Part shown: one piece after another, positions 8,759-21,900 of the stretch | How positions within the stretch are numbered: the first letter of the stretch is position 1 | How the letters are laid out: each line of letters starts with the position of its first letter | From: Paramecium tetraurelia | Taxonomy: Eukaryota | Direction of reading: 5' to 3' | Assembly: GCA_000165425.1 (NCBI GenBank) | Contig: CT868057.1 | Span: forward strand, 124,001-188,000 | DNA: 64,000 nucleotides | The notes under the pieces: generated by a model | What the model was told of the DNA's origin: nothing | Database searches by the model: none | The model's input: only the letters and a program-made list of their open reading frames with translations | Made by a program: the position numbers and the translations under genes

Positions 8759-9500
8759 AGATTTCCAATTTCATATATTTTATATATATAATTATAAATT
8801 TAAATATCCGATTCATAAAATATCTTACTTACTCAATATTTACTTAACATTTTATATCACATTCCAATGTATTTTAGTTCTCCTTCTTCTTAAAATTAAT
8901 CTCAGCATTCTTTTCTAAAGTGCTATAAAAAAATAATTCTATAAACTTTAATCAAGGTATAAATTTTAAAAAGAAAAAGGAGCTTTTATGATTATAAATA
9001 TAAATATTTTAATAAAAATGTTAAAATATTGATAAAGACATTGTTTAATTTAAACAGAGTTTTTTTTTAGAAATATTTATATAGAAAAAAAAAAAAATCC
9101 ATTAAAGTACGATTGTAAACTAACATCTAAAAAATGATGAAAGATTAGTCAACTAATTATAGAATAAAATTGAAAAATCAAATTGAGAATATAAGGGAAA
9201 AGAAGAATTTTTTGCCTAAATTATTCTATATTCAATAAATATATTAGATTAAAAAAATAGAATATATGCTATTGAGGATAATTAATTAATAAATCCATAA
9301 GGATAACTAATTAAGGGAAAAATGCTTTATTTATAGGATGATTATGATAACAAATACTACACTAGGATAACTTTATTCATTCACTTGAGCTAATACATAT
9401 GATAAGCTTAAAATAGAACTCTTAAATACATCTAAATAATCGAATGAATATAATTGTAATTCTTCATATAAGTCAGTATGTTTTAAAAATTAAAAATGAT

Positions 9501-10812
9501 TCATTAATTACAAATATACATCAATTCAAACAATATTGTGCATTCGCTTTAATATTCTAATGCATATCGCTGTAAATTTTAGCCTGCCCTTTTTTCTTGT
9601 AGTAGCTTAACTAATAATTAAGGACTTGCATTAGAATTCTCTTTAAAAAATTATTCAATTTATGTATAAATAGTTTTGATTTTAACTGATTTCTTCATAA
9701 CGCTTAATCTTTGTTTTGCTTTCTCTAATTTTTCATTGGGCACTGGTTTTTATTCATAATTCTAATATGATTAGAAAATATAATACATCTTGTCTTCTAA
9801 AATTTTTAGCCAAAATGGCTGATTGCAATTTTGTAATTGATTGTGCTGCATCTTTAGCTGATAGTAATTTTAATTATTGTTATCCTAAAGAAAAAGCTTT
9901 AATCTTTTAAATTGTTTCATCTATATCTTATTTATAATCATTGCCTTCTTCTTATGCGACCCTCTTAATTAAAGAGTTAATAATTTAGAGTTGTTTTGTT
10001 GCTTCCTCCTTGATTGTTTTCAACCCTCTGGTACTATCTTCCATAAGTTTTAAGAAAACCTAATTTACAAACTAATATAAGTCGTGATATGAGATTTAAT
10101 ATTATTTAAGATTGATTTCCTCTCCATTTACTTTAATTATCGGAGTTTCTGAGAAAATAGTTTGATTGGGTGCAAGTCTTCTCAATTTTTTCCCATATGG
10201 AACCAGAGATACAGGAGGTTCAACTCTAACTAGTTTGTAGAAGATTTCTTCTTTGATTTATTGCAATTTATTCGCAAAATCAACTTTTGAATCTTAAATG
10301 TATTCCATCTAAGAACTGATTAATGTTGAATTATGAATCCTATTTTTCAACTCAGCCACAATTGTATGAGAAAATGTTTCTCCTATTGCCAAAGTAAAGA
10401 ACTTAAATTAATATTCTTGCTCATGAAATAAAGAAAAGTTTTCTGCTAAATCATCTATGTAATCCTCCAATTTATCTTCACCAACTCCATCTGTGATAAA
10501 TATCACAATAACATTTTTTTTCAATTTTTCACTCTTTACTAGTTTTATTAATTCATGAAAACCCAAGGATATATTTGTTCCTTCTCCTTTTTGTTAATTT
10601 AATTTAGGATTCTATTATAATATCGCAGTATCATCAAATTAAATACAATATGAACTTTAGATATCTAATAAGAAATGATTCCAAGCCTTGCATAAATCTT
10701 CCCAGCATTCACTCATGCTTCCAGATCCATCAATCACACCAACGACAGAAAAATTATCATCTGGTTTTTGATCCACTATTGTATAGAGGTAGAATTGTTT
10801 ATCCTAATTCAT
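9501..10812 (-). CDS. von Willebrand factor A (MIDAS) domain protein with helical C-terminus; 1 intron
   Basis: VVGVIDGSGSM, GEGTNISLGF, VIVIFITDG, FFTLAIG; frame followed to TGA at 9501. Confidence 0.85.
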
Positions 10813-10993
10813 CTTAATAATTACTTAATTAAATATAAGATTAATAAGTTTTATCTGATAGCTTTTAATAGAATATGTGAATTAAAAGGGGGATTGACTC
10901 TTATTAAAATCATCATCGTGATAATTTTGTTTTTTATATGGTGATCCACAACTTAGAATTTTTAATAAAAATTATATCTTAAATATTTTATAG

Positions 10994-13900
10994 ATGCTAA
11001 CATTTACTGTATAGTATGATGGGAAATAATTTAATTCGGAATGCCAGAGTTATAGAAAGGTCCAAGATTACGTTGATAAGTTAATTTCTACCCTGAAATT
11101 ATCAATTTAAAATAAGCAATATGGATTATTCATGAATAATAATGAGCTTCAAAGGGATAAAACATTTTTAGATAACAAAGTTATTAGGGGAGCACTTTTA
11201 GAATTGAGAATCACTAAAACCTTTGAGTATGCCTTTCTCAAAGTTAATAGAAATGGGAAATCCTTTTGGCCTCATATGAGTTTGGCTGCGATGGCATAAG
11301 AATTATATTAAGTGACTGCTTAAGAGTTTAAAATTGCTGATGATACATTTACACTTTTCTTTTAAGGAATTCCCCTTGAGAGAAATGTTTAGTTAGCTTA
11401 ATATAATATAATTGGAAATTCTATTATTAATTGTGAAAACAAAGAGTTCGCTAAACAAGATGATTAGGTAATCAACTAACAATAAAACATTTTGAATGCA
11501 AAGAATATTACATAAGAATAATAGAATTATAGCTAGCCAGAAATTTAATAGCAATAATAACATTTCATAGTTATTTTAGAATATCGCGAATAAAAATAAG
11601 TAATTGAGGCAACTTTAGATACTTACATAAATGAAATCATAGAAATTGCTAAATATATGTATAAAATTTAGGAAAACATTATTTTGAAGCTGAATTAAAA
11701 AATTTTACCAAACGACTAAAACTTACAATAATTATAAATCAAGAAAGGATATACTCTAACAATTGAAATTTAATAATAGTAAATACCATAATAATAATAA
11801 ATATCTTAATAATAATAAATACCTCAATAAAATATTAATATTATTTTAGAATATATTAATTCAAAAACATAACTCGAAGTAGCGAAAGATACTTACATTT
11901 AAGAACTAGTCGATACTGTAAAATAGTTACACAAAATAAATGAAAGTATAGTCTTAAAATTGAATCAATAAATTTTACCAAACAACTTAACTCTAGAATA
12001 ATTATAAATCAAAAAAGGTCATACACTTTCAGCTGAAGTTCAATAATAGTAACAGCCATAATAGTAATTACCCTAATAATAAACACGATAATAAAATATC
12101 ATAATTTTTTTAGAGTATCTTAGCTAAAAAACACAAATCGAAGTAACTGTAGATACCTAAATATAAGAACTAGTAGATACTGTAAAATAATTACACCAAA
12201 TAAATGAAAATATAGTCTTAAAGTTGAATCAATAAATTTTACCAAATAACTTAACTCTAGAATAATTACTAATCAAAAAAGGTCATACACTTTCAGCTGA
12301 AGTTCAATAATAGTAACAGCCATAATAGTAAATGCCCTAATAATAAACACGATAATAAAATATCATAATTTTTTTAGAGTATCTTGGCTAAAAAACACAA
12401 ATCGAAGTAACTATAGATACCTAAATATAAGAACTAGTAGATACTGTAAAATAATTACACAAAATAAATGAAAACATAGTCTTAAAATTGAATCAATAAA
12501 TTTTACCAAACAACTTAACTCTAGAATAATTACTAATCAAAAAAGGTCATACACTTTCAGCTGAAGTTCAATATTAGTAACAGCCATAATAGTAAATGCC
12601 CTAATAATAAACACTATAATAAAATATCATAATTTTTTTAGAGTATCTTGGCTAAAAGACACAAATCGAAGTAGCGTTAGATACTTGCGTATAAGAAATT
12701 GTAGATATTGCAATACCATTATACGAAATTAATGAAAATATAGTCTTAAAGTTGAATCAATAATTTTTACCAAACAATTAAACTCTAGAATAATTACTAA
12801 TCTAAAATGGTCATACACTTTTAGTTGAAGTTCAATAACAGTAACAGCCATAAAAGTAAATGCCCTAATAATAAACGCTTTAATAAAATATCATAATTTT
12901 TTTAGAGTATCTTGGCTAAAAGACACAAATCGAAGTAGCGTTAGATACTTGCGTATAAGAAATTGTAGATATTGCATTACCATTGTACGAAATTAATGAA
13001 AATATAGTCTTAAAGTTGAATCAATAATTTTTACCAAACAATTAAACTCTAGAATAATTACAAATCTAAAATGGTCATACACTTTTAGTTGAAGTTCAAT
13101 AACAGTAACAGCCATAAAAGTAAATGCCCTAATAATAAGCGCTATAATAAAATATCATAATTTCATTAGAGTACCTTGGGTAAAAAACACCAATAGAAGT
13201 AGCGCTAGATACTTATATATAAGAACTAATAGATACTGTAAAATAATTGCACCAAATTAAAGAAAATGTAGTCTTCACTTTGAATTAATAAATATTACCA
13301 AACAACTAAACTTTAGGATAATTAAACATTTTGAAAGGCACTACTCTAACAGCGGAAGTTCAATAATAATAATAATCAATATAATTAATTATTTATCACT
13401 CTAATTCTTAACCATTACCTGTTGAGGTAGACTAAGATACTAAAGTGTCAGAATTAGCAATTGAATTATAGGGCTATTACCAAATTTCATAAATTTTGTT
13501 TACTTTAGAAAATAGATAGGTGTTAGATCAATTGTTAACTTTTAGAGAATAAAATATTCTTACAGGTACTAAATTATACATCTAATAAATCTACGATACT
13601 CCAACCTAAATACCATCTGGAATGCAAGAAATAGTTTTGATAATTTTATTTGAGAGTCAAACCATTAATATAACTATCCCTAATAATTCCCTGGTAAAAG
13701 AGCTTGAAGATATGCTAAAGAAAAATTGGAATCTCAATTATGAAATAAATCTATTTCACAATGATAAAATGCTGAATTCGAATGAAACCTTTCTAAAGTA
13801 GCAAATAGTTAAAGGATCAAAGTTAGTGGTTAAATAAGCATTAGCTTAAAAAAAATAAATTCAATTAAGCTTGGTTTATGAGAGTTTAAATCCTCTTCAA

Positions 13901-16420
13901 GTCGAAGTCGAGGATGACACTTCTATTAAAGAATTTGAAGATTTAATCATTGAATAATATAAGCTAGAAAAAGGTTTGATAATCTCATACAAAGAATAGA
14001 TTTTAGATTCAACAAAAACCCTGTTAGACTATTAAATTAAAGATAATTCGGTTCTCAACTTCAAATAAAAAGCAAACTAAGTTAACCTTGTTATTCAGGC
14101 CTTCCATCAAACTGTAGATTTTAATTTTAGTAAAGAGACAAAAATTAGTAATATGATTGAAGATATAAGGAGAAGATTTAATTCAGTAGATCAATTGATG
14201 ATCTAAAAAGAGAATGGAGAAATTTTAAATCCAGATTTCACTATAAAGCAATATGGGCTTTTTGATACATAGACCTTAATTGTAATTCCAAAATAAAATA
14301 AATAACCTGAATAAGTGATGCCGATAGGAAGAAAAATAAATGTGATAGTAGATTATAATGGGAAAAAAATATAGGTTGAAGTTTCTGATAACACAGTCGT
14401 ATCATAGTTCATTGAATAAATCAGACCAAATTTATAACTTTAAGGAGAAGTTTAACTTAATCTTGAGGGATAATAAGTTCTAAATCCTTTCGAAACTTTA
14501 GTCAATTAGAAAGTTTAAAAAGGAAGTCGATTAATTGTTAATCAAATGAAATAAGGTTCCTCTCCCATAAATATAAGATCACTATTCCTGACGATCGATT
14601 ATAAAGGTAACCGTACTACATTAGAAGTTACTGATGATACTCTTGTCTCTGAATTAATTTTTACGATGAAAGGTAATTTATAAATCAAAGAAGATTGCAA
14701 TTTGTGCTTTGAAAATAAAAAAGTTCTGCAACCAAATTCATCAATAAAGGATTAAAATGTTGATAACAACTTGGTTTTATATTTAATTCCGATTGTGGAT
14801 AATGCCTAGAAGCAACCTTCCTAATAATCACCTTAATTACTTCAATAAGAAATATTTTTGAACTTTTATTATTAAAATTAAACCACTGATTTAAAAATTG
14901 ATCCTAATATATTAGTGAAGTAATTGATTGAAGGTATTCAAAGCAATTTGAATTTATAGGAAAAATTTTAATTAAGTTTGGATGGCAAAAATATATTGAA
15001 TGAGGAATAGTCTTTGGCTGCTTTAAAAATATAGGATAAGAGCACTTTATATCCAATTTTCGACCAGAAACCTCAATAATAACAAGATTAAGAGAATTTC
15101 AGTTTATATATAGATTATTAGAATAATCAGCATTAGATTGTAATATCATCTAATTCATTAGGAAATGAGTTGGTGGAAATGGTTAAAAAAATCACTTTAA
15201 ACATACCAATAATAAATATACTGATTGATGGAAAAACTCCTTTGATCTTAGATAAGACTCTGAAGGCTTAGAATTTGAAGAACCATAGTCATCTCTAAGT
15301 TCAAGTTTAAGGATAAATGTATGGATCACAATTACAATGGCAATAACAATAACAATAACAATAACCGTTTTAATCCTCTTAATAATAAAAATAATAATTC
15401 CCCACTATGAATTAAAACCCGTTCTTTTAGAATCAGCCTAATAATTTTTAAATACAACCATAAAATAATAAACAAGGACCTCCAATAAATTAATAATTAA
15501 ATCCATTTTAAAAATTTGGTCCCCCTAATTAGCAAAACCAATTTGATGGTTCTAATTAAAGTTCATAATTCTTAAATAGTTCTGGATACTAACAATAATT
15601 TCCCTTATAGTCTTAAGCAGGTCTCTCTTAGTAATTTTAAAGATTTCCAACACAATTTTAAAAACCACAACAATAGCCAATGGGTGGAATTCCTTAGTAA
15701 TAATATAACCTTACTTTATCCTAATAAAACAAACCAATTGTAATTTAGCTGAAATACATGAATTAATTTTCAAGGTAGGAATTCAATAAAAACAATTCAG
15801 TATCAGATATGATTAAACGTTGCTAGGAAATATTTAATATACCATAAGAACCAACAATTCAACGTAATGGTCAGGATTTGAATTCTTCATAGGTTTTAGA
15901 ATCATGTAGATTCTAAGAATTCGAAATTTTAGAAGTTGTTTTAAAGCAATCAAATCCATTTATTTTGAATATTTCAGTGCAAAACAACAATATTCAAGTG
16001 GAAACAGATTTAGATTAATAGATTTTTGAGTTTATGGATGAGTTGAAAGTAGCATACAGTATCAATTATGCCACAGAACTCGTGTATAATCAAATACAGT
16101 TACTTCCAGATAAGACTTTTAGGTAATAGAATATTCCAAATAACAGTTATTTGATTTTGAGATAGAAACAACTAAATGGTAAATTGAAGATTACATAAAG
16201 TTTAAATTTAATGATTGTCAAAGTTAGAGATGGAATGAATTTGATACAGATTGAAATACCTCCCACAGCAACTGTTTAAGATTTTGAGAAAAAGGTTAAG
16301 GAAAAGATAATAATAAACACTAATTGTAGATTTTAATTCAACATGATGATTTTGAACCCATAGTAAACTTTAGCTCAATAAGGAATAAACAACAATTGTG
16401 AAGTATTGTTGCTTCGATGA
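10994..16420 (+). CDS. Giant multi-ubiquitin-like-domain protein (about 20 UBL domains, Q-rich linkers), 1808 aa
   Basis: 5427 nt from ATG to TGA in one frame; repeated ~70-aa units such as IEVTVDTQIQELVDTVKQLHQINENIVLKLNQQILPNNLTLEQLLIKKGHTL and VEVEDDTSIKEF...ILDSTKTLLDYQIKDNSVL follow the beta-grasp UBL pattern. Confidence 0.85.
11558..13365 (+). repeat. Coding tandem array, 7 units of 264 bp (first spacing 270 bp)
   Basis: Anchor resembling agctgaagtt recurs at 11761, 12031, 12295, 12559, 12823, 13087 and 13351. Confidence 0.95.
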
Positions 16421-16456
16421 TGAATTTAATTTACATCATTTAATATATATTAAATT

Positions 16457-17068
16457 TCATAAATCTCTGGCATCTTCAAAACTTAAGATAAAGACAGTGT
16501 GAGGATAATAGCTGACACCTCGTTCATCTGTTTTAAATTAATAAGAAACTTGGCACGTGAATCCAGAAGCATTCAAGACTCCCTGAGGGATAGAAATTAT
16601 TCCTTACTTTCAGAATCCCACACATAAATTATGCAGGGGATATATGTCCTTCTTCTGAAATATATTTGAGAAGCAATGGATTCTCATCTCTAATAAGATA
16701 ATCATTGGGTCTATCCTTCAACCTTTCAATTGATTCTGCTTGTCTACCAAAGAGGTGTTTCCAAAACTAGCCATGCATATTTGATTTACAATCCCTTAGA
16801 TGAACCTCAATTGTTCAACTAATTTGGTTTCCCTTTTATTTCGTTCTCTAAGACTCACTACTTCATAAAGTCGGATTCCCACTGAGACTCCTAATTGTTC
16901 CATTTTGGAGTTCATCTCATCGTAATCGTTCCCGTGTTTTCTCTTCAAGTAGCAAATGTATCTAGATATTGAATGAAAGTACTCAGCAAAGATATAATTG
17001 AATGTGCAGAAATTCAATTCAGGCCTTTGTTATCTAATATTCTTGTCAAGAAACTAAAATTTTTTCAT
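16457..17068 (-). CDS. TRAPPC5: TRAPP complex subunit Trs31/TRAPPC5; 2 introns
   Basis: KMEQLGVSVGIRLYE, KRETKLVEQLRFIQGIFWKHLFGRQAESIE, YLIRDENPLLLKYIS, FMCGILKGVLNASGF. Confidence 0.85.
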
Positions 17069-17092
17069 GATTATATGAATTAACTAACATTT

Positions 17093-18254
17093 TCATAATT
17101 GCTTTAATGATTCAGCAAATTATTCAATAAGAGTCATAAGATTCTTGCCATTCATACATGTTGCGTCAACCAAAGCACTACATACAAGATAGGGATCCAT
17201 ATTGGCTGCAGGTCTTCTATCCTCCAAATACCTAAAATTACTCAAATATAATATACCCCTTGCCTAATTCTTTTGTAATGATTGGTACTCTAATGGAACA
17301 TCCCCTTGATCCATCACCCCAAGAAAATTGATTATATTCTCCAGTTTCATGTTTACCTGTCAATCTCGCTTCATTGTTTAATCCATACAACAACATCATT
17401 TTTTGGTGATTCTTTTCCAAAAGAGGCAACATAAATTCTTTGATGTATTCATAACCTCCATTTTCCCTTGTCTTCGTTGTTGAGAAATTGCAATGAGCAC
17501 CTGTGCCATTCCAATCTCCTTGAATTGGCTTTGGATCATAATTGATATCAATGCCAAACTCTTCGCCCAATCTCTCCAATATGTATCTTGCCAACCATAA
17601 ATGATCTCCTGCCTCAATTCCATGAGCAATTCCAATTTGAAATTCCCATTATGATGGAGCCACTTCTGAATTAATTCCTGACAACTTCAGTCCAGCGTAG
17701 AGACAGGCTCGTTAATGAGCTTCAGATAAGGCTCTCCCGAAGTTGTTGCGTTCTCCTATTGAACAATAATATCTTCCCTACGGATATGGAAAACCTCCGA
17801 CAGGCCATCCCAAAGGCCATAGGTGGGTTGTCCCTGTTCTCTTCAACATAAAATACTCTTATTCAATGCCAAACCAAGGATCAATGTCACTAGCTTCTTA
17901 CATTATTTTTTCCGCAATCCATCTAAAATTAAAACGTGCTGGTGTTTTACGGTCTGGCTTGTATGTCTCACATAATACAAGTTTATGTGGGTCTCCACGA
18001 AAAGGATCCCTTACCATGCAAACAGGCTTCAAGTAAATCTCACTAAATTTTGTAATTGCTTGATCAGTGGATGAGCCATCAAATGTCCACCATTCAACAT
18101 CATCCAGGCTTTTAATTGGTGTATCGTACACTTTAGTTTTGGATCTCAGTCTCTCTCCAGTACCATCTATCCAAATATACTCAACCAAAACATGTTTGTT
18201 TGTGTTTAGTTTGAAATAGTTAAAATCCCTTAAGTTTTCAATTGTTTCAGTCAT
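17093..18254 (-). CDS. GLN1: Glutamine synthetase (GSII); 1 intron
   Basis: EYIWIDGTG, WTFDGSST, RDPFRG, INSEVAPSQWEFQIG, PKPIQGDWNGTGAHCNFST, RLTGKHET, EDRRPAANMDPY. Confidence 0.97.
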
Positions 18255-18305
18255 TGATTAAATAAATATTTTAATATAATAAATATTTTTATATGATTGA
18301 CGAAC

Positions 18306-18959
18306 TCATGCACCATATTTAGGAAATCTGCCCACTTAAGTAAGGAGTTCTCTCCAAAGACATTGTAATCTCATCACATTTCGTCTGATATATGAAAACT
18401 CATTAATTTATTCTAACGTTTCAATATCGTCAACTCTCATCTAATAATTTGAATAATGTATAAGTGCAATTTGTTTTCCTTAACTTTCTAATTGCTAATA
18501 TTTAAATTGATTTCTTGATTAAAGTGGAAATTCTATATCATTATTATATTATTTGATGTTAGATATGATGAAATATATATGATGCAATTTCTGTTTTTGT
18601 ATTTCTTCCAATACTTTTACTTAATCTTTAAATGCAATAACAATGTCAAAATTCTCAAATAAATTATCTTAATATTAATCATAGCTTGTCAATTTAAATT
18701 CATCGTATTGTTTTCCAATAACAGCTGTTTTAGCACCATAACTTATTTAAGAGTAGAATTGAGCATCACTGATCAAATTAACTTCAAGAATTTCCTCATC
18801 ATTTTGTTAGTTTTATTGAATTTGATGAAATCCCCCCTTCTTCATTCCCATCAATTCCAATAGAAAGTCCTCTTATTCTTGGACCACAATAGTAGTATTG
18901 CCTTTTTTGATGAAGTCTTGGCAATCGTAATCGATTATTAGTGCCACCTTGCCCTTCAT
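18306..18959 (-). CDS. Hypothetical protein; needs an unusually long (41 nt) intron or a frameshift near 18745-18785
   Basis: MKGKVALIIDYDCQDFIKKG start frame joins a long downstream frame ending at TGA 18306. Confidence 0.5.
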
Positions 18960-18984: not shown

Positions 18985-21900
18985 ATGAAGCTAAGCCAAG
19001 TTGCACCGATGCCAATAAAAGTAGATATACATCTAATAGTAGCAAGAAGTTGAGGACTTCGAGAATAGAGTAACCCTGAGATTGTATTTGGAGAAACTGC
19101 TGAGTCAGAAGTGGGGTCGATATTTAGACATATTTTCTGGATTCATTAGTTTGACATCCTGCATGATCTATTTGGGCACAACTTACTTTAGCAATGTGGA
19201 TTGGCTGAGTACTATAGACATCATAGTGTGTTCCCTTTATTTATTTGAATACCTTTTGAAAACATTTGCTGCTTAACACAGACTGCAATACATACTAGAA
19301 GTGAATTCAGCAGTAGAATTATTTACATTGATGCCCTTGTTTATATTATAGGAATAAGAGAATTGGGACTATTTAACAAGATTGATAAACATCTCCAGAG
19401 TGATAAGATTCCTAAGAGTGGTTAAGACGATTTCTAAGTACTACCAAATTGGTGACAATGAATTCGGAGGTGTTAATAAATAAATTTACACAATATCCTT
19501 GACAATTCTGACTTTGATTATTGTGACTGCAGGAGTTTTATAAGCATTTGAATCTCCAAAGAGAAAGGAACTAATAGCACTAGATGAAGAAAATCAGTGC
19601 GGAGCATCAGTGGATGAGTGTACCTTTCACGAAATGGTGTACTTTACAGTGGTGACACTAGCCACAGTAGGTTATGGAGATGTAACTCCTTAGACAGAAG
19701 AAGGGAGAGTTTGTGTGATTGTATTGATCATCATTGTGTTGGTTGTAATACCCAAACAGATGAATGAATTGATTAGATTGATGGGATTACAAAGTGTCTA
19801 TGCAAGAGCATTCTATAAATGGAATCCAGAAGTTCCACACATCATTATTTGTGGACATGTAAGTGTTGCAGCCCTGAGAAACTTTTGTAGTGAGCTTTTC
19901 CATCAAGATCATGGCAGTCAAGATAAGAATGCTATCATTATGAGGTTGACTAAACCTAATACTGAGATGGAGATCTTCTTGCACAATCCAAAATATGAGT
20001 TATTCTTGACTTATCTATAAGGCAGTCCTATGGTTGATAGAGATCTCAAAAGAGCTGCAGCTACTTAAGCTAAGGCTTGTGTGATATTGACCAATAAACA
20101 AATAGTTAATAGTCAATCCTCAGATCATAAGAATATATTGATTGGATTGTAAATCAAAAAGTATGTTAATCATATCACAGGTGGAAATATACGTCTATGT
20201 ATGCAATTGATCAAACCAGAAAGCAAGTTGAATTATAGACAAGCTCTAGGCTTGAAAGTCATAACAGATTAGATCATCTCTGTTGAAGAATTTAAGATGA
20301 ATCTTTTGGCTAAATCTTGTTTCTGTCCTGGTATAATTGCTTTGATTGGCAATCTGATTACATCTGCAGGAGAATAAGAAGGAGATATGGAATATGAATG
20401 GTTAAATGAATATACTAAGGGAATGGGACATGAAATATATAGGACTGATCTAAGCTTTAAATTTTAAGGCAAAAGTTTTAGTGAAGTAGCCACCATAGTT
20501 TACAATGAATTTAAGGGTATATTGTTTGGCATAGAATTTGACATCGGCAAATACACTATAATTCGATTGAATCCAGGTAGTTACATCATTCCTAACACAA
20601 CAGAGGCTAATGTTCATGCATATATCATTTGTGAGGATAAAAAGGTTGCTGATTAAGTGGCAACTTATGAGATGACTACTGAGGAAATTGCTAATTACCA
20701 TTATCAGTTATTGTAAAAATCCAAGTAAAAAGAAAAACTACCAGATGATGAAGAAGAAGAGAAATTTGATGATCCTCTTCTTTATGGAAAAGATTCTATC
20801 GAAGAAGCTGAAATGTTAGAATAAGATTATGTTCTTGACCCAGAACCTATTTCCTTAATGACTGTTACTCCAACATCCTTATAAGACTCAACAGAAATCA
20901 CCAATCATATTGTCGTTTGTGGAATCCATCCATCTATCTATTACTTCTTACTAGCACTCAGAGCTAAGTATCTTAAAGAACTTCAATTTGTTGTGATTTT
21001 AGCTCCTGAATAACCAACCAAATAATGGGAATACATTAACAGATTTCCCAAGGTTAGATTCATCAAGGGATCCCCTTTAACATCAGATGGGCTATTAAGA
21101 GCTAACATTAACTTTGCTGATAAGGCTGTCATTTTCGCTTAAGGTTCAGATTAATCAATCGATGAAGTCGGAGATGCAATAGATGAAATGCATGATGCAG
21201 AATCCATATTTATTTACAAGGCCATTAAAAAACTCAACCCATCTATTTAAATTATGATTGAGCTTGTTTATAGTTCTAATATAGAATTTCTACTTGAAAA
21301 AGATTACCAATATTAAAATGAGTTCAAATATGAATTTGTATTACCTCCACATTTATATTTTATAGACCCCCCTTTAGGCTTCTGGAGAAGTCTATATTTC
21401 AGCCATTATAGATACTCTTACATGCTAGGCTTACTTCAATCCGCACATTGTGACTATTCTATAATAAATCCTAACCGGTTAGAGATAGTCAACTCAAGTT
21501 ATAAGAGCTATTTGTGAGCATGCTGATCTAAAAGACTCCAATCTATATTAAGTGCCTGTTCCAGAAGATTATCTTGTAAATTTTTATTGGATTATTTTAT
21601 CTAGAATAAAACCTTTGGAGAACTATTTAATTACTTATCTACAGAAAGGCATCTTATTCCTCTTGGGTTGTATAGAATGGCTGGAGCTGTTGATAATAAA
21701 CATCCTTATGTTTACACTAATCCTCCATCAGAAACTAAATTGACTCACAGGGATAAGGTCTTCGTCCTAGCCCATCAATTACCAGCTGATTTAACTGGAG
21801 GAAGCAATCTTGATTTAAAGGCAATGCAAATGGAAGGAAAATAACTTGATATTGAAAATGAAAATAAGGGACTCATCCAAGACAAATTTAAAAATCAAAT

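Follow-up and report, generated by a model that had tools for sequence, protein, structure and literature searches.

A giant protein of 20 ubiquitin-like domains without di-glycine ends in Paramecium tetraurelia

Results

A single intron-free frame encodes 20 ubiquitin-like units

We analyzed a 64,000-nucleotide stretch of Paramecium tetraurelia DNA (the window; contig CT868057.1, positions 124,001 to 188,000, with coordinates below counted from its first letter) and focused on one plus-strand gene within it. A first-pass annotation, made by a model from the letters alone, had described this gene as encoding a giant protein made of about 20 ubiquitin-like (UBL) domains without di-Gly ends, and our results confirm that observation as a whole. 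The gene consists, as had been proposed, of one ATG-to-TGA frame of 1808 amino acids (aa) under table 6, the ciliate nuclear code, with RNA in the sense direction (see below). In this frame, 241 TAA/TAG codons are read as glutamine. Table 6 is in use here, since the frames of the neighboring glutamine synthetase and BK-channel genes, with 9 and 23 TAA/TAG codons respectively, still give full Pfam matches. Among the frames in positions 1-26000 of the window, the second-longest has 784 aa, and by our own estimate a TGA-free stretch of 1808 codons is not expected to arise by chance in this DNA, whose GC content is ~26%. The product would be a single chain of ~200 kDa, as estimated from its length. 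The identical 1808-aa sequence is already present in public protein sets, under no name.

Starting from the repeat units, we grew a profile and with it delimited 20 UBL units in the order 2 + 7 + 8, a low-complexity insert, and 3 (Table 1), which is exactly the layout given in the first-pass annotation. Because such a profile is circular, having been grown from the protein's own repeats, independent checks were made, and these are presented in the next sections. The N-terminal pair is the part of the protein that is best conserved between species. The array units start at aa 191, 281, 369, 457, 545, 633 and 721, the eight divergent units at aa 796, 880, 956, 1030, 1115, 1197, 1287 and 1369, and the three C-terminal units at aa 1582, 1656 and 1739. 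At the DNA level, Tandem Repeats Finder (TRF) detected the array as a repeat with a 264-nt period and 6.4 copies at 11687-13372, with 88% matches. The seven array units had been described as near-identical, which holds for the pairs 5/6 and 7/8 only; the protein identities of the other array units to unit 5 are 56, 83, 94, 75, 74 and 76%. The ratio of non-synonymous to synonymous substitution rates (dN/dS) among array units 4-9 ranges from 0.26 to 0.62 and is below 1 in 15 out of 15 pairs, so selection acts on the protein sequence. Regarding the low-complexity insert, its size of ~140 residues was correctly anticipated, while its borders moved from 15310-15730 to 15317-15736. Glutamine makes up 35% of it, proline 11%, asparagine 11% and phenylalanine 9%.

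Table 1. Positions of the poly-UBL gene, its parts and the neighboring genes in the window
Feature	Position	Strand	Basis and details
Whole coding frame, 1808 aa	10994..16420	+	Stop TGA 16418-16420; intron-free; RNA reads without joints
5' untranslated region, 30 nt or more	10964..10993	+	X1 contig start at 10964
Two divergent UBLs at the N-terminus, aa 2-76 and 81-152, 4-residue joint	10997..11449	+	Unit profile, Pfam
Q/N-rich linker, 38 residues	11450..11563	+	
UBL array, 7 related units, aa 191-792	11564..13369	+	72 aa each plus a 16-18-aa Q/P linker; 264-nt DNA period
Eight divergent UBL units, aa 796-1441, linkers of 1-17 residues	13379..15316	+	Unit profile, Pfam, model of units 10-12
Q/P/N/F-rich low-complexity insert, 140 residues, aa 1442-1581	15317..15736	+	Holds the protein's only GG
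Three C-terminal UBL units, aa 1582-1808, end LLLR	15737..16417	+	Unit profile, Pfam
3' untranslated region, about 45 nt	16421..16465	+	X1 contig end at 16465
Divergent upstream gene	9754-10812	-	Weak vWA-type Pfam matches under cut-offs; 25-nt intron at 9762
Small gene convergent with the poly-UBL gene, before glutamine synthetase	16423-17100	-	Minus-strand RNA 7-14x
Glutamine synthetase gene	17166-18254	-	Pfam
Slo/BK-type calcium-activated potassium channel	19163-21517	+	Pfam: Slo-like RCK 5e-58, BK_channel_a 5e-31

The frame is transcribed in the sense direction

Three oligo-dT stranded RNA-seq runs with the same species label (X21, X22 and X23; 58-nt reads) were mapped over 9500-18500. All reads over 11005-16422 had their first mate on the minus strand, and they were present in 17 of 18 bins for X21, 18 of 18 for X22 and 10 of 18 for X23, and the minus-strand neighbor genes gave the opposite read class only. 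This places the RNA in the sense direction of the poly-UBL frame. No splice joints within the frame were reported in the reads of the three runs. Contigs from run X1 cover 10964-11977 and 12998-16465, gap-free within each; they derive from spliced RNA, because 25 nt, typical of ciliate introns, are omitted in both neighboring genes. The part of the array at 11977-12998 is bridged by reads, not by one contig, and a single full-length molecule is likely.

The units are ubiquitin folds by sequence and by structure prediction

Scanning the whole protein with Pfam, the best profile was Rad60-SLD (E-value of 3.3e-23, 13 stretches), followed by YukD (7.4e-23), ubiquitin (6.4e-19, 9 stretches) and TUG-UBL1 (2.9e-11). 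When the units were scanned singly, a UBL-type family was matched by 19 of the 20 at E<=0.05 and by about 15 at E<=0.01, with 3/20 reaching the curated cut-off. Ubiquitin itself was matched by unit 2 (2.6e-6) and unit 20 (5e-5), and unit 18 alone gave no UBL match in Pfam. As for YukD, a bacterial ESX/WXG100 ubiquitin-like family with a single domain encoded in type VII secretion loci, the summed score is 81.5 bits and the best single unit has 24.0 bits, under the cut-off of 27; given the eukaryotic context, membership is unlikely. A search of the Protein Data Bank (PDB) with the unit profile matched ubiquitin, polyubiquitin (9 stretches, E 5e-46) and the UBLs of ubiquilin (E 6e-7). In the ESM Atlas we found UBL-type clusters only, with scores <=0.84 and without taxa, which were used as a lead only.

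Structure models were obtained for 4 of the 20 units. The AlphaFold2 model of unit 5 (aa 369-440), whose alignment consisted of the other 19 units of the same protein, reached a predicted local distance difference test (pLDDT) score of 95.8 and a predicted template modeling (pTM) score of 0.83, with elements in the order beta-beta-alpha-beta...beta. With this model as a query, Foldseek ranked ubiquitin first, with TM scores of 0.85-0.90 and a root-mean-square deviation of 1.5-1.9 Å at ~20% identity. Modeled jointly, units 10-12 gave three beta-grasp domains with the same element order, a mean pLDDT of 83.8 and a pTM of 0.40, and the first inter-unit linker had a pLDDT below 50. A fixed arrangement of the domains is therefore not predicted, and the units would resemble beads on a string. 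All four modeled units are beta-grasp domains, the outcome of the AlphaFold check suggested in the first-pass annotation, and together with the profile matches the models support the view that the units are real ubiquitin folds.

The chain has neither processing signals nor the ubiquitin patch

The sole GG of the 1808 aa lies at aa 1564, within the insert. The end of every unit lacks Gly-Gly, as the first-pass annotation had stated, and lacks even a single terminal Gly. The units end instead in QQQQQ or in unrelated residues, and the protein itself in LLLR. Junctions between units vary from 1 to 38 residues, some having merely 1, 2, 3 or 4, and share no common motif. With such ends and such junctions, polyubiquitin-style processing or conjugation is not possible, which supports a chain that would be neither cleavable nor conjugatable in the polyubiquitin manner. 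None of the 14 Pfam rows obtained for the whole protein at E<=10 belonged to Hint, UBA, UIM, STI1 or an enzyme family, in agreement with the earlier remark that no enzymatic domain was visible.

We also aligned the 20 units with the ubiquitin unit from P0029. Hydrophobic residues at all of the positions L8, I44 and V70 were found in 0/20 units. In the seven array units, the position of I44 is occupied by K or T and that of V70 by E, and K48 is kept in 3 of the 20. The columns conserved among the units are those that define the ubiquitin core and its turns.

Relatives in Paramecium and elsewhere

The only long relative retrieved by the word-based search is P0002 from P. sonneborni, a protein of 2037 aa labeled 'Ubiquitin-like domain-containing protein', which aligns to 75% of the query at 40% identity. 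It is a collinear orthologue of 23 units with a homogenized array of its own. Units 1 and 2 pair with units 1 and 2 of P0002 (63% and 58% identity), the seven array units correspond to an array of about ten near-identical units, and units 10, 11, 14, 15, 17, 18, 19 and 20 correspond to units 14, 15, 17, 18, 20, 21, 22 and 23. Identity within the array of the P. tetraurelia protein (units 4-9) is 74-94%, versus 53-65% between species, so the two arrays were homogenized or expanded separately.

Paralogues were detected in Paramecium (P0003, P0011, P0016, P0017 and P0038). P. sonneborni and P. primaurelia have paralogues with 9-10 units, and P. pentaurelia has a protein of 188 aa with two units. 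P0017 is a P. sonneborni paralogue of 1093 aa; at its aa 235-406, a tract of short 'QQQIIQKEP'-type repeats replaces the UBL array. Both P0002 and P0017 have a Q/N-rich insert, with 7-9% Phe, at the position corresponding to that of the P. tetraurelia insert; its composition and position are kept and its sequence is not. The P. tetraurelia insert has two NPF motifs; we considered them as EH-domain ligands and rejected them as chance occurrences, since the P0002 and P0017 inserts lack them. The P. tetraurelia protein thus belongs to an unnamed Paramecium poly-UBL family, built from an N-terminal pair, a homogenized array, divergent units, a Q/N-rich insert and terminal UBLs.

When 1.84 billion representatives were searched exhaustively with the profile, 2579 matched at E<=1e-3, 54 of them at E<=1e-30. 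Units and RGG motifs were counted in the 150 best of the 2579 matches, and we call GG-poor those proteins with at most one RGG. True polyubiquitins accounted for 28 of the 150. At least 10 units were present in 50, of which 47 were GG-poor, and at least 16 units in 8, all of them GG-poor (8/8). Pfam found 16-23 ubiquitin stretches in each of five GG-poor multi-UBL proteins. One GG-poor protein, of 1420 aa and 16 UBLs, comes from the diatom Cylindrotheca closterium. The GG-less poly-UBL architecture is thus recurrent; the proteins of other eukaryotes differ in composition and in extra parts, and their orthology to the Paramecium family is not shown.

P0005-P0008 (with P0006/P0164), P0015, P0018, P0020 and P0027 form a separate GG-less poly-UBL family with 8-18 units, rich in K/D/E and with one member from the diatom C. 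closterium. Its proteins have a conserved non-UBL piece at the N-terminus, and a short C-terminal piece is common to P0005, P0006, P0007 and P0020. In another poly-UBL cluster (P0154), a metagenome relative reaches 5416 aa.

Full-text literature searching found no characterized giant made only of UBLs, though with most subscription journals outside its reach this absence is unproven. It turned up only proteins with 2-5 UBLs (ISG15, FAT10, OASL, USP7/USP47 and TUG) and the BUBL loci. The first-pass statement that no characterized protein of this architecture was known therefore stands as to characterization; the architecture itself is not unique, given the 23-unit orthologue and the 47 GG-poor proteins of at least 10 units among the 150 best matches.

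Neighboring genes

The gene neighbors give no hint to the function of the poly-UBL protein. The frame of the divergent upstream gene starts at 10812, which leaves 182 intergenic nucleotides before the poly-UBL start codon, and its RNA depth is 2-3x. In the small minus-strand gene, the frame pieces 16524-16778 and 16718-17068 resemble exons. For glutamine synthetase, the spliced contig omits 25 nt at 17228, meaning that the C-terminus of the listed frame reads through an intron. At ten sites within 17382-18180 of the same gene, letters other than those of the window reach about 57% of the RNA reads; these variants probably come from a close paralogue.

Discussion

A proposed multi-UBL scaffold and its alternatives

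Public databases already contained this gene model with its UBL domains, and UBL domains integral to a protein are a known kind; what is unusual here is an all-UBL, 20-unit, GG-less design. The explanation that we favor, at slightly better than even confidence, is an unprocessed, non-conjugatable multi-UBL scaffold arranged as beads on a string. A low-level transcript would be translated, with TAA/TAG as glutamine, into a single chain of 20 separately folding ubiquitin-fold domains on flexible and often Q/P-rich linkers, with the 140-residue Q/N/P/F-rich insert, presumably disordered, ahead of the last three domains. The UBL domains would be integral to the chain, neither released as monomers nor joined to substrates. 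Valency, in the sense of how many units the middle array has, would shift fast by unequal recombination, and the insert may contribute self-association. We infer a scaffold or spacer because the units are conserved at the positions that determine the fold and not at the patch by which ubiquitin binds its receptors. Of the roles proposed in the first-pass annotation, a multivalent scaffold would fit the data. The proposed condensate formation is compatible with a Q/N-rich insert of conserved position and 7-9% Phe, which is what a condensate-prone region could look like.

Several points weigh against this explanation. The RNA depth over the poly-UBL gene is low (0.1-11x, with a 3' bias, versus 17-57x for glutamine synthetase), and one full-length mRNA is not directly seen, because the reads are short and the contigs break in the array. 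The alignment behind the model of units 10-12 had only 16 rows, all from the protein itself, and a low pTM is weak evidence of flexibility. The patch analysis depends on a sequence alignment at ~20% identity. An unknown protease could cleave the chain, whose intactness, like its scaffold role, is our inference. Finally, the word-based homologue search was insensitive: the full-length query retrieved itself and P0002 only, and the range of the family among ciliates is not established. Word-based queries with aa 796-1441 and 1-152 retrieved the query alone, though P0002 shares the N-terminus, and have no bearing on distribution.

One could argue that the protein is a weakly constrained, fast-turnover repeat protein with little specific function, in which TAA/CAA slippage and unequal crossing-over inflate a dispensable UBL array. 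The low identity to the P. sonneborni orthologue (only 40%), the different number of array units (7 versus about 10), the short-repeat tract of P0017 at the array position, the low RNA depth and the dN/dS values of up to 0.6 in some unit pairs would all agree with this. We nevertheless hold it to be unlikely: the 5.4-kb frame is intact, dN/dS stays under 1 in every pair compared, the modeled units all fold confidently, and the two species share the unit order, the N-terminal pair, the position of the insert and the C-terminal triplet. Less probable again is a multivalent mimic of a ubiquitin chain, a decoy or a shuttle, in which an uncleavable chain would engage proteasome receptors, p97 adaptors or UBA/UIM proteins. 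The units are true ubiquitin-family folds, their nearest solved sequences are ubiquitin and the ubiquilin UBLs, and the UBLs of Rad23, Dsk2 and ubiquilin dock on the proteasome. On the other hand, the L8/I44/V70 patch that such partners would meet is missing from all 20 units, with K or T at I44 and E at V70 in the array and K48 in few units; no UBA or UIM domain was found by Pfam at E<=10, and it is the core and the turns that are conserved. The mimic or decoy suggested in the first-pass annotation was accordingly not borne out.

We consider least probable, and indeed quite improbable, that the chain is a polyprotein precursor from which an unknown protease other than a deubiquitinase (DUB) frees single UBLs by cutting the linkers, perhaps for non-canonical use. 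The head-to-tail order is that of polyubiquitin, and ciliates possess an unorthodox route of UBL release and attachment, the BUBL loci with their intein-like domains (PMC8616854). But the junctions lack a motif, those of 1-4 residues leave no tail at several places, the units have no Gly ends, and no Hint/BIL domain appears in Pfam at E<=10. Besides, the units are very unequal (identity to unit 1 is 11-22%), whereas a precursor that yields a single product would have like units.

Returning to the scaffold, the known roles of ubiquitin folds are those of modifiers or of docking domains, one to five of which sit in a larger protein. A chain of 20 UBLs that appears uncuttable, unconjugatable and patch-less suggests that the fold is also used outside ubiquitin signaling. 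The same design recurs in public data. A role found for the Paramecium protein could serve a whole set of orphan proteins, and the fast turnover of the array offers a natural series for asking if unit number matters. In Paramecium, GFP tagging and feeding-based RNA interference (RNAi) are routine methods. A broader idea, which we put forward as doubtful, is that GG-less poly-UBL giants are an unrecognized class of eukaryotic scaffolds, in which the fold would be a mechanical or spacer module, comparable to Ig/Fn3 domains in titin-like proteins, combined with disordered sticky regions. Ciliates, diatoms and other lineages would each have expanded such giants on their own, and in Paramecium the giant would form or adjust a structure, cytoskeletal or condensate-like, sized by the number of units.

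Comparison with known systems

Polyubiquitin precursors (UBI4/UBB/UBC type) share with the poly-UBL protein a head-to-tail string of ubiquitin folds in a single frame. Their units, however, are near-identical, spacer-free and RGG-ended for cleavage, whereas those described here are ~20% identical to ubiquitin, very unequal, spaced by 1-38 residues or by the 140-residue insert, and without a G end. A polyubiquitin precursor or a conjugatable modifier (SUMO, NEDD8, ISG15, FAT10) is ruled out by the lack of GG or terminal Gly and by junctions of down to one residue.

Tandem ubiquitin folds in one chain are also found in ISG15 and FAT10 (2 UBLs), the HUBL region of USP7 (5 UBLs), TUG and Rad60/Esc2/NIP45. 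Proteins of this type have 2-5 UBLs that are joined to other functional parts or GG-ended, and the SUMO-like domains of Rad60-type proteins also lack GG; the poly-UBL protein has 20 UBLs and otherwise linkers only. It does not have the Rad60/Esc2/NIP45 architecture, in which two C-terminal SUMO-like domains (SLDs) follow a long non-UBL N-terminus with SUMO-interacting motifs (SIMs), since it consists of 20 UBLs and no other part. Regarding UBL-UBA shuttles (ubiquilin/Dsk2, Rad23), the UBLs of ubiquilin rank with the closest sequences of solved structure, and these factors also contain low-complexity regions. We discarded this assignment on the lack of a UBA or STI1 domain in Pfam at E<=10 and of the receptor-binding patch.

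The BUBL loci of ciliates, such as Tetrahymena BUBL1, are polyubiquitin-like genes whose UBLs act outside the canonical route; intein-like BIL domains flank the UBLs and both release and attach them (PMC8616854). A BUBL-type locus is ruled out here, as no Hint/BIL family was matched in Pfam at E<=10. Further counterparts are the unnamed GG-poor poly-UBL proteins, such as that of Cylindrotheca closterium. They are K/D/E-rich instead of Q/N-rich, with non-UBL pieces at both termini in the diatom type, and share with the Paramecium protein a chain of many UBLs, with 10-23 units and at most one RGG.

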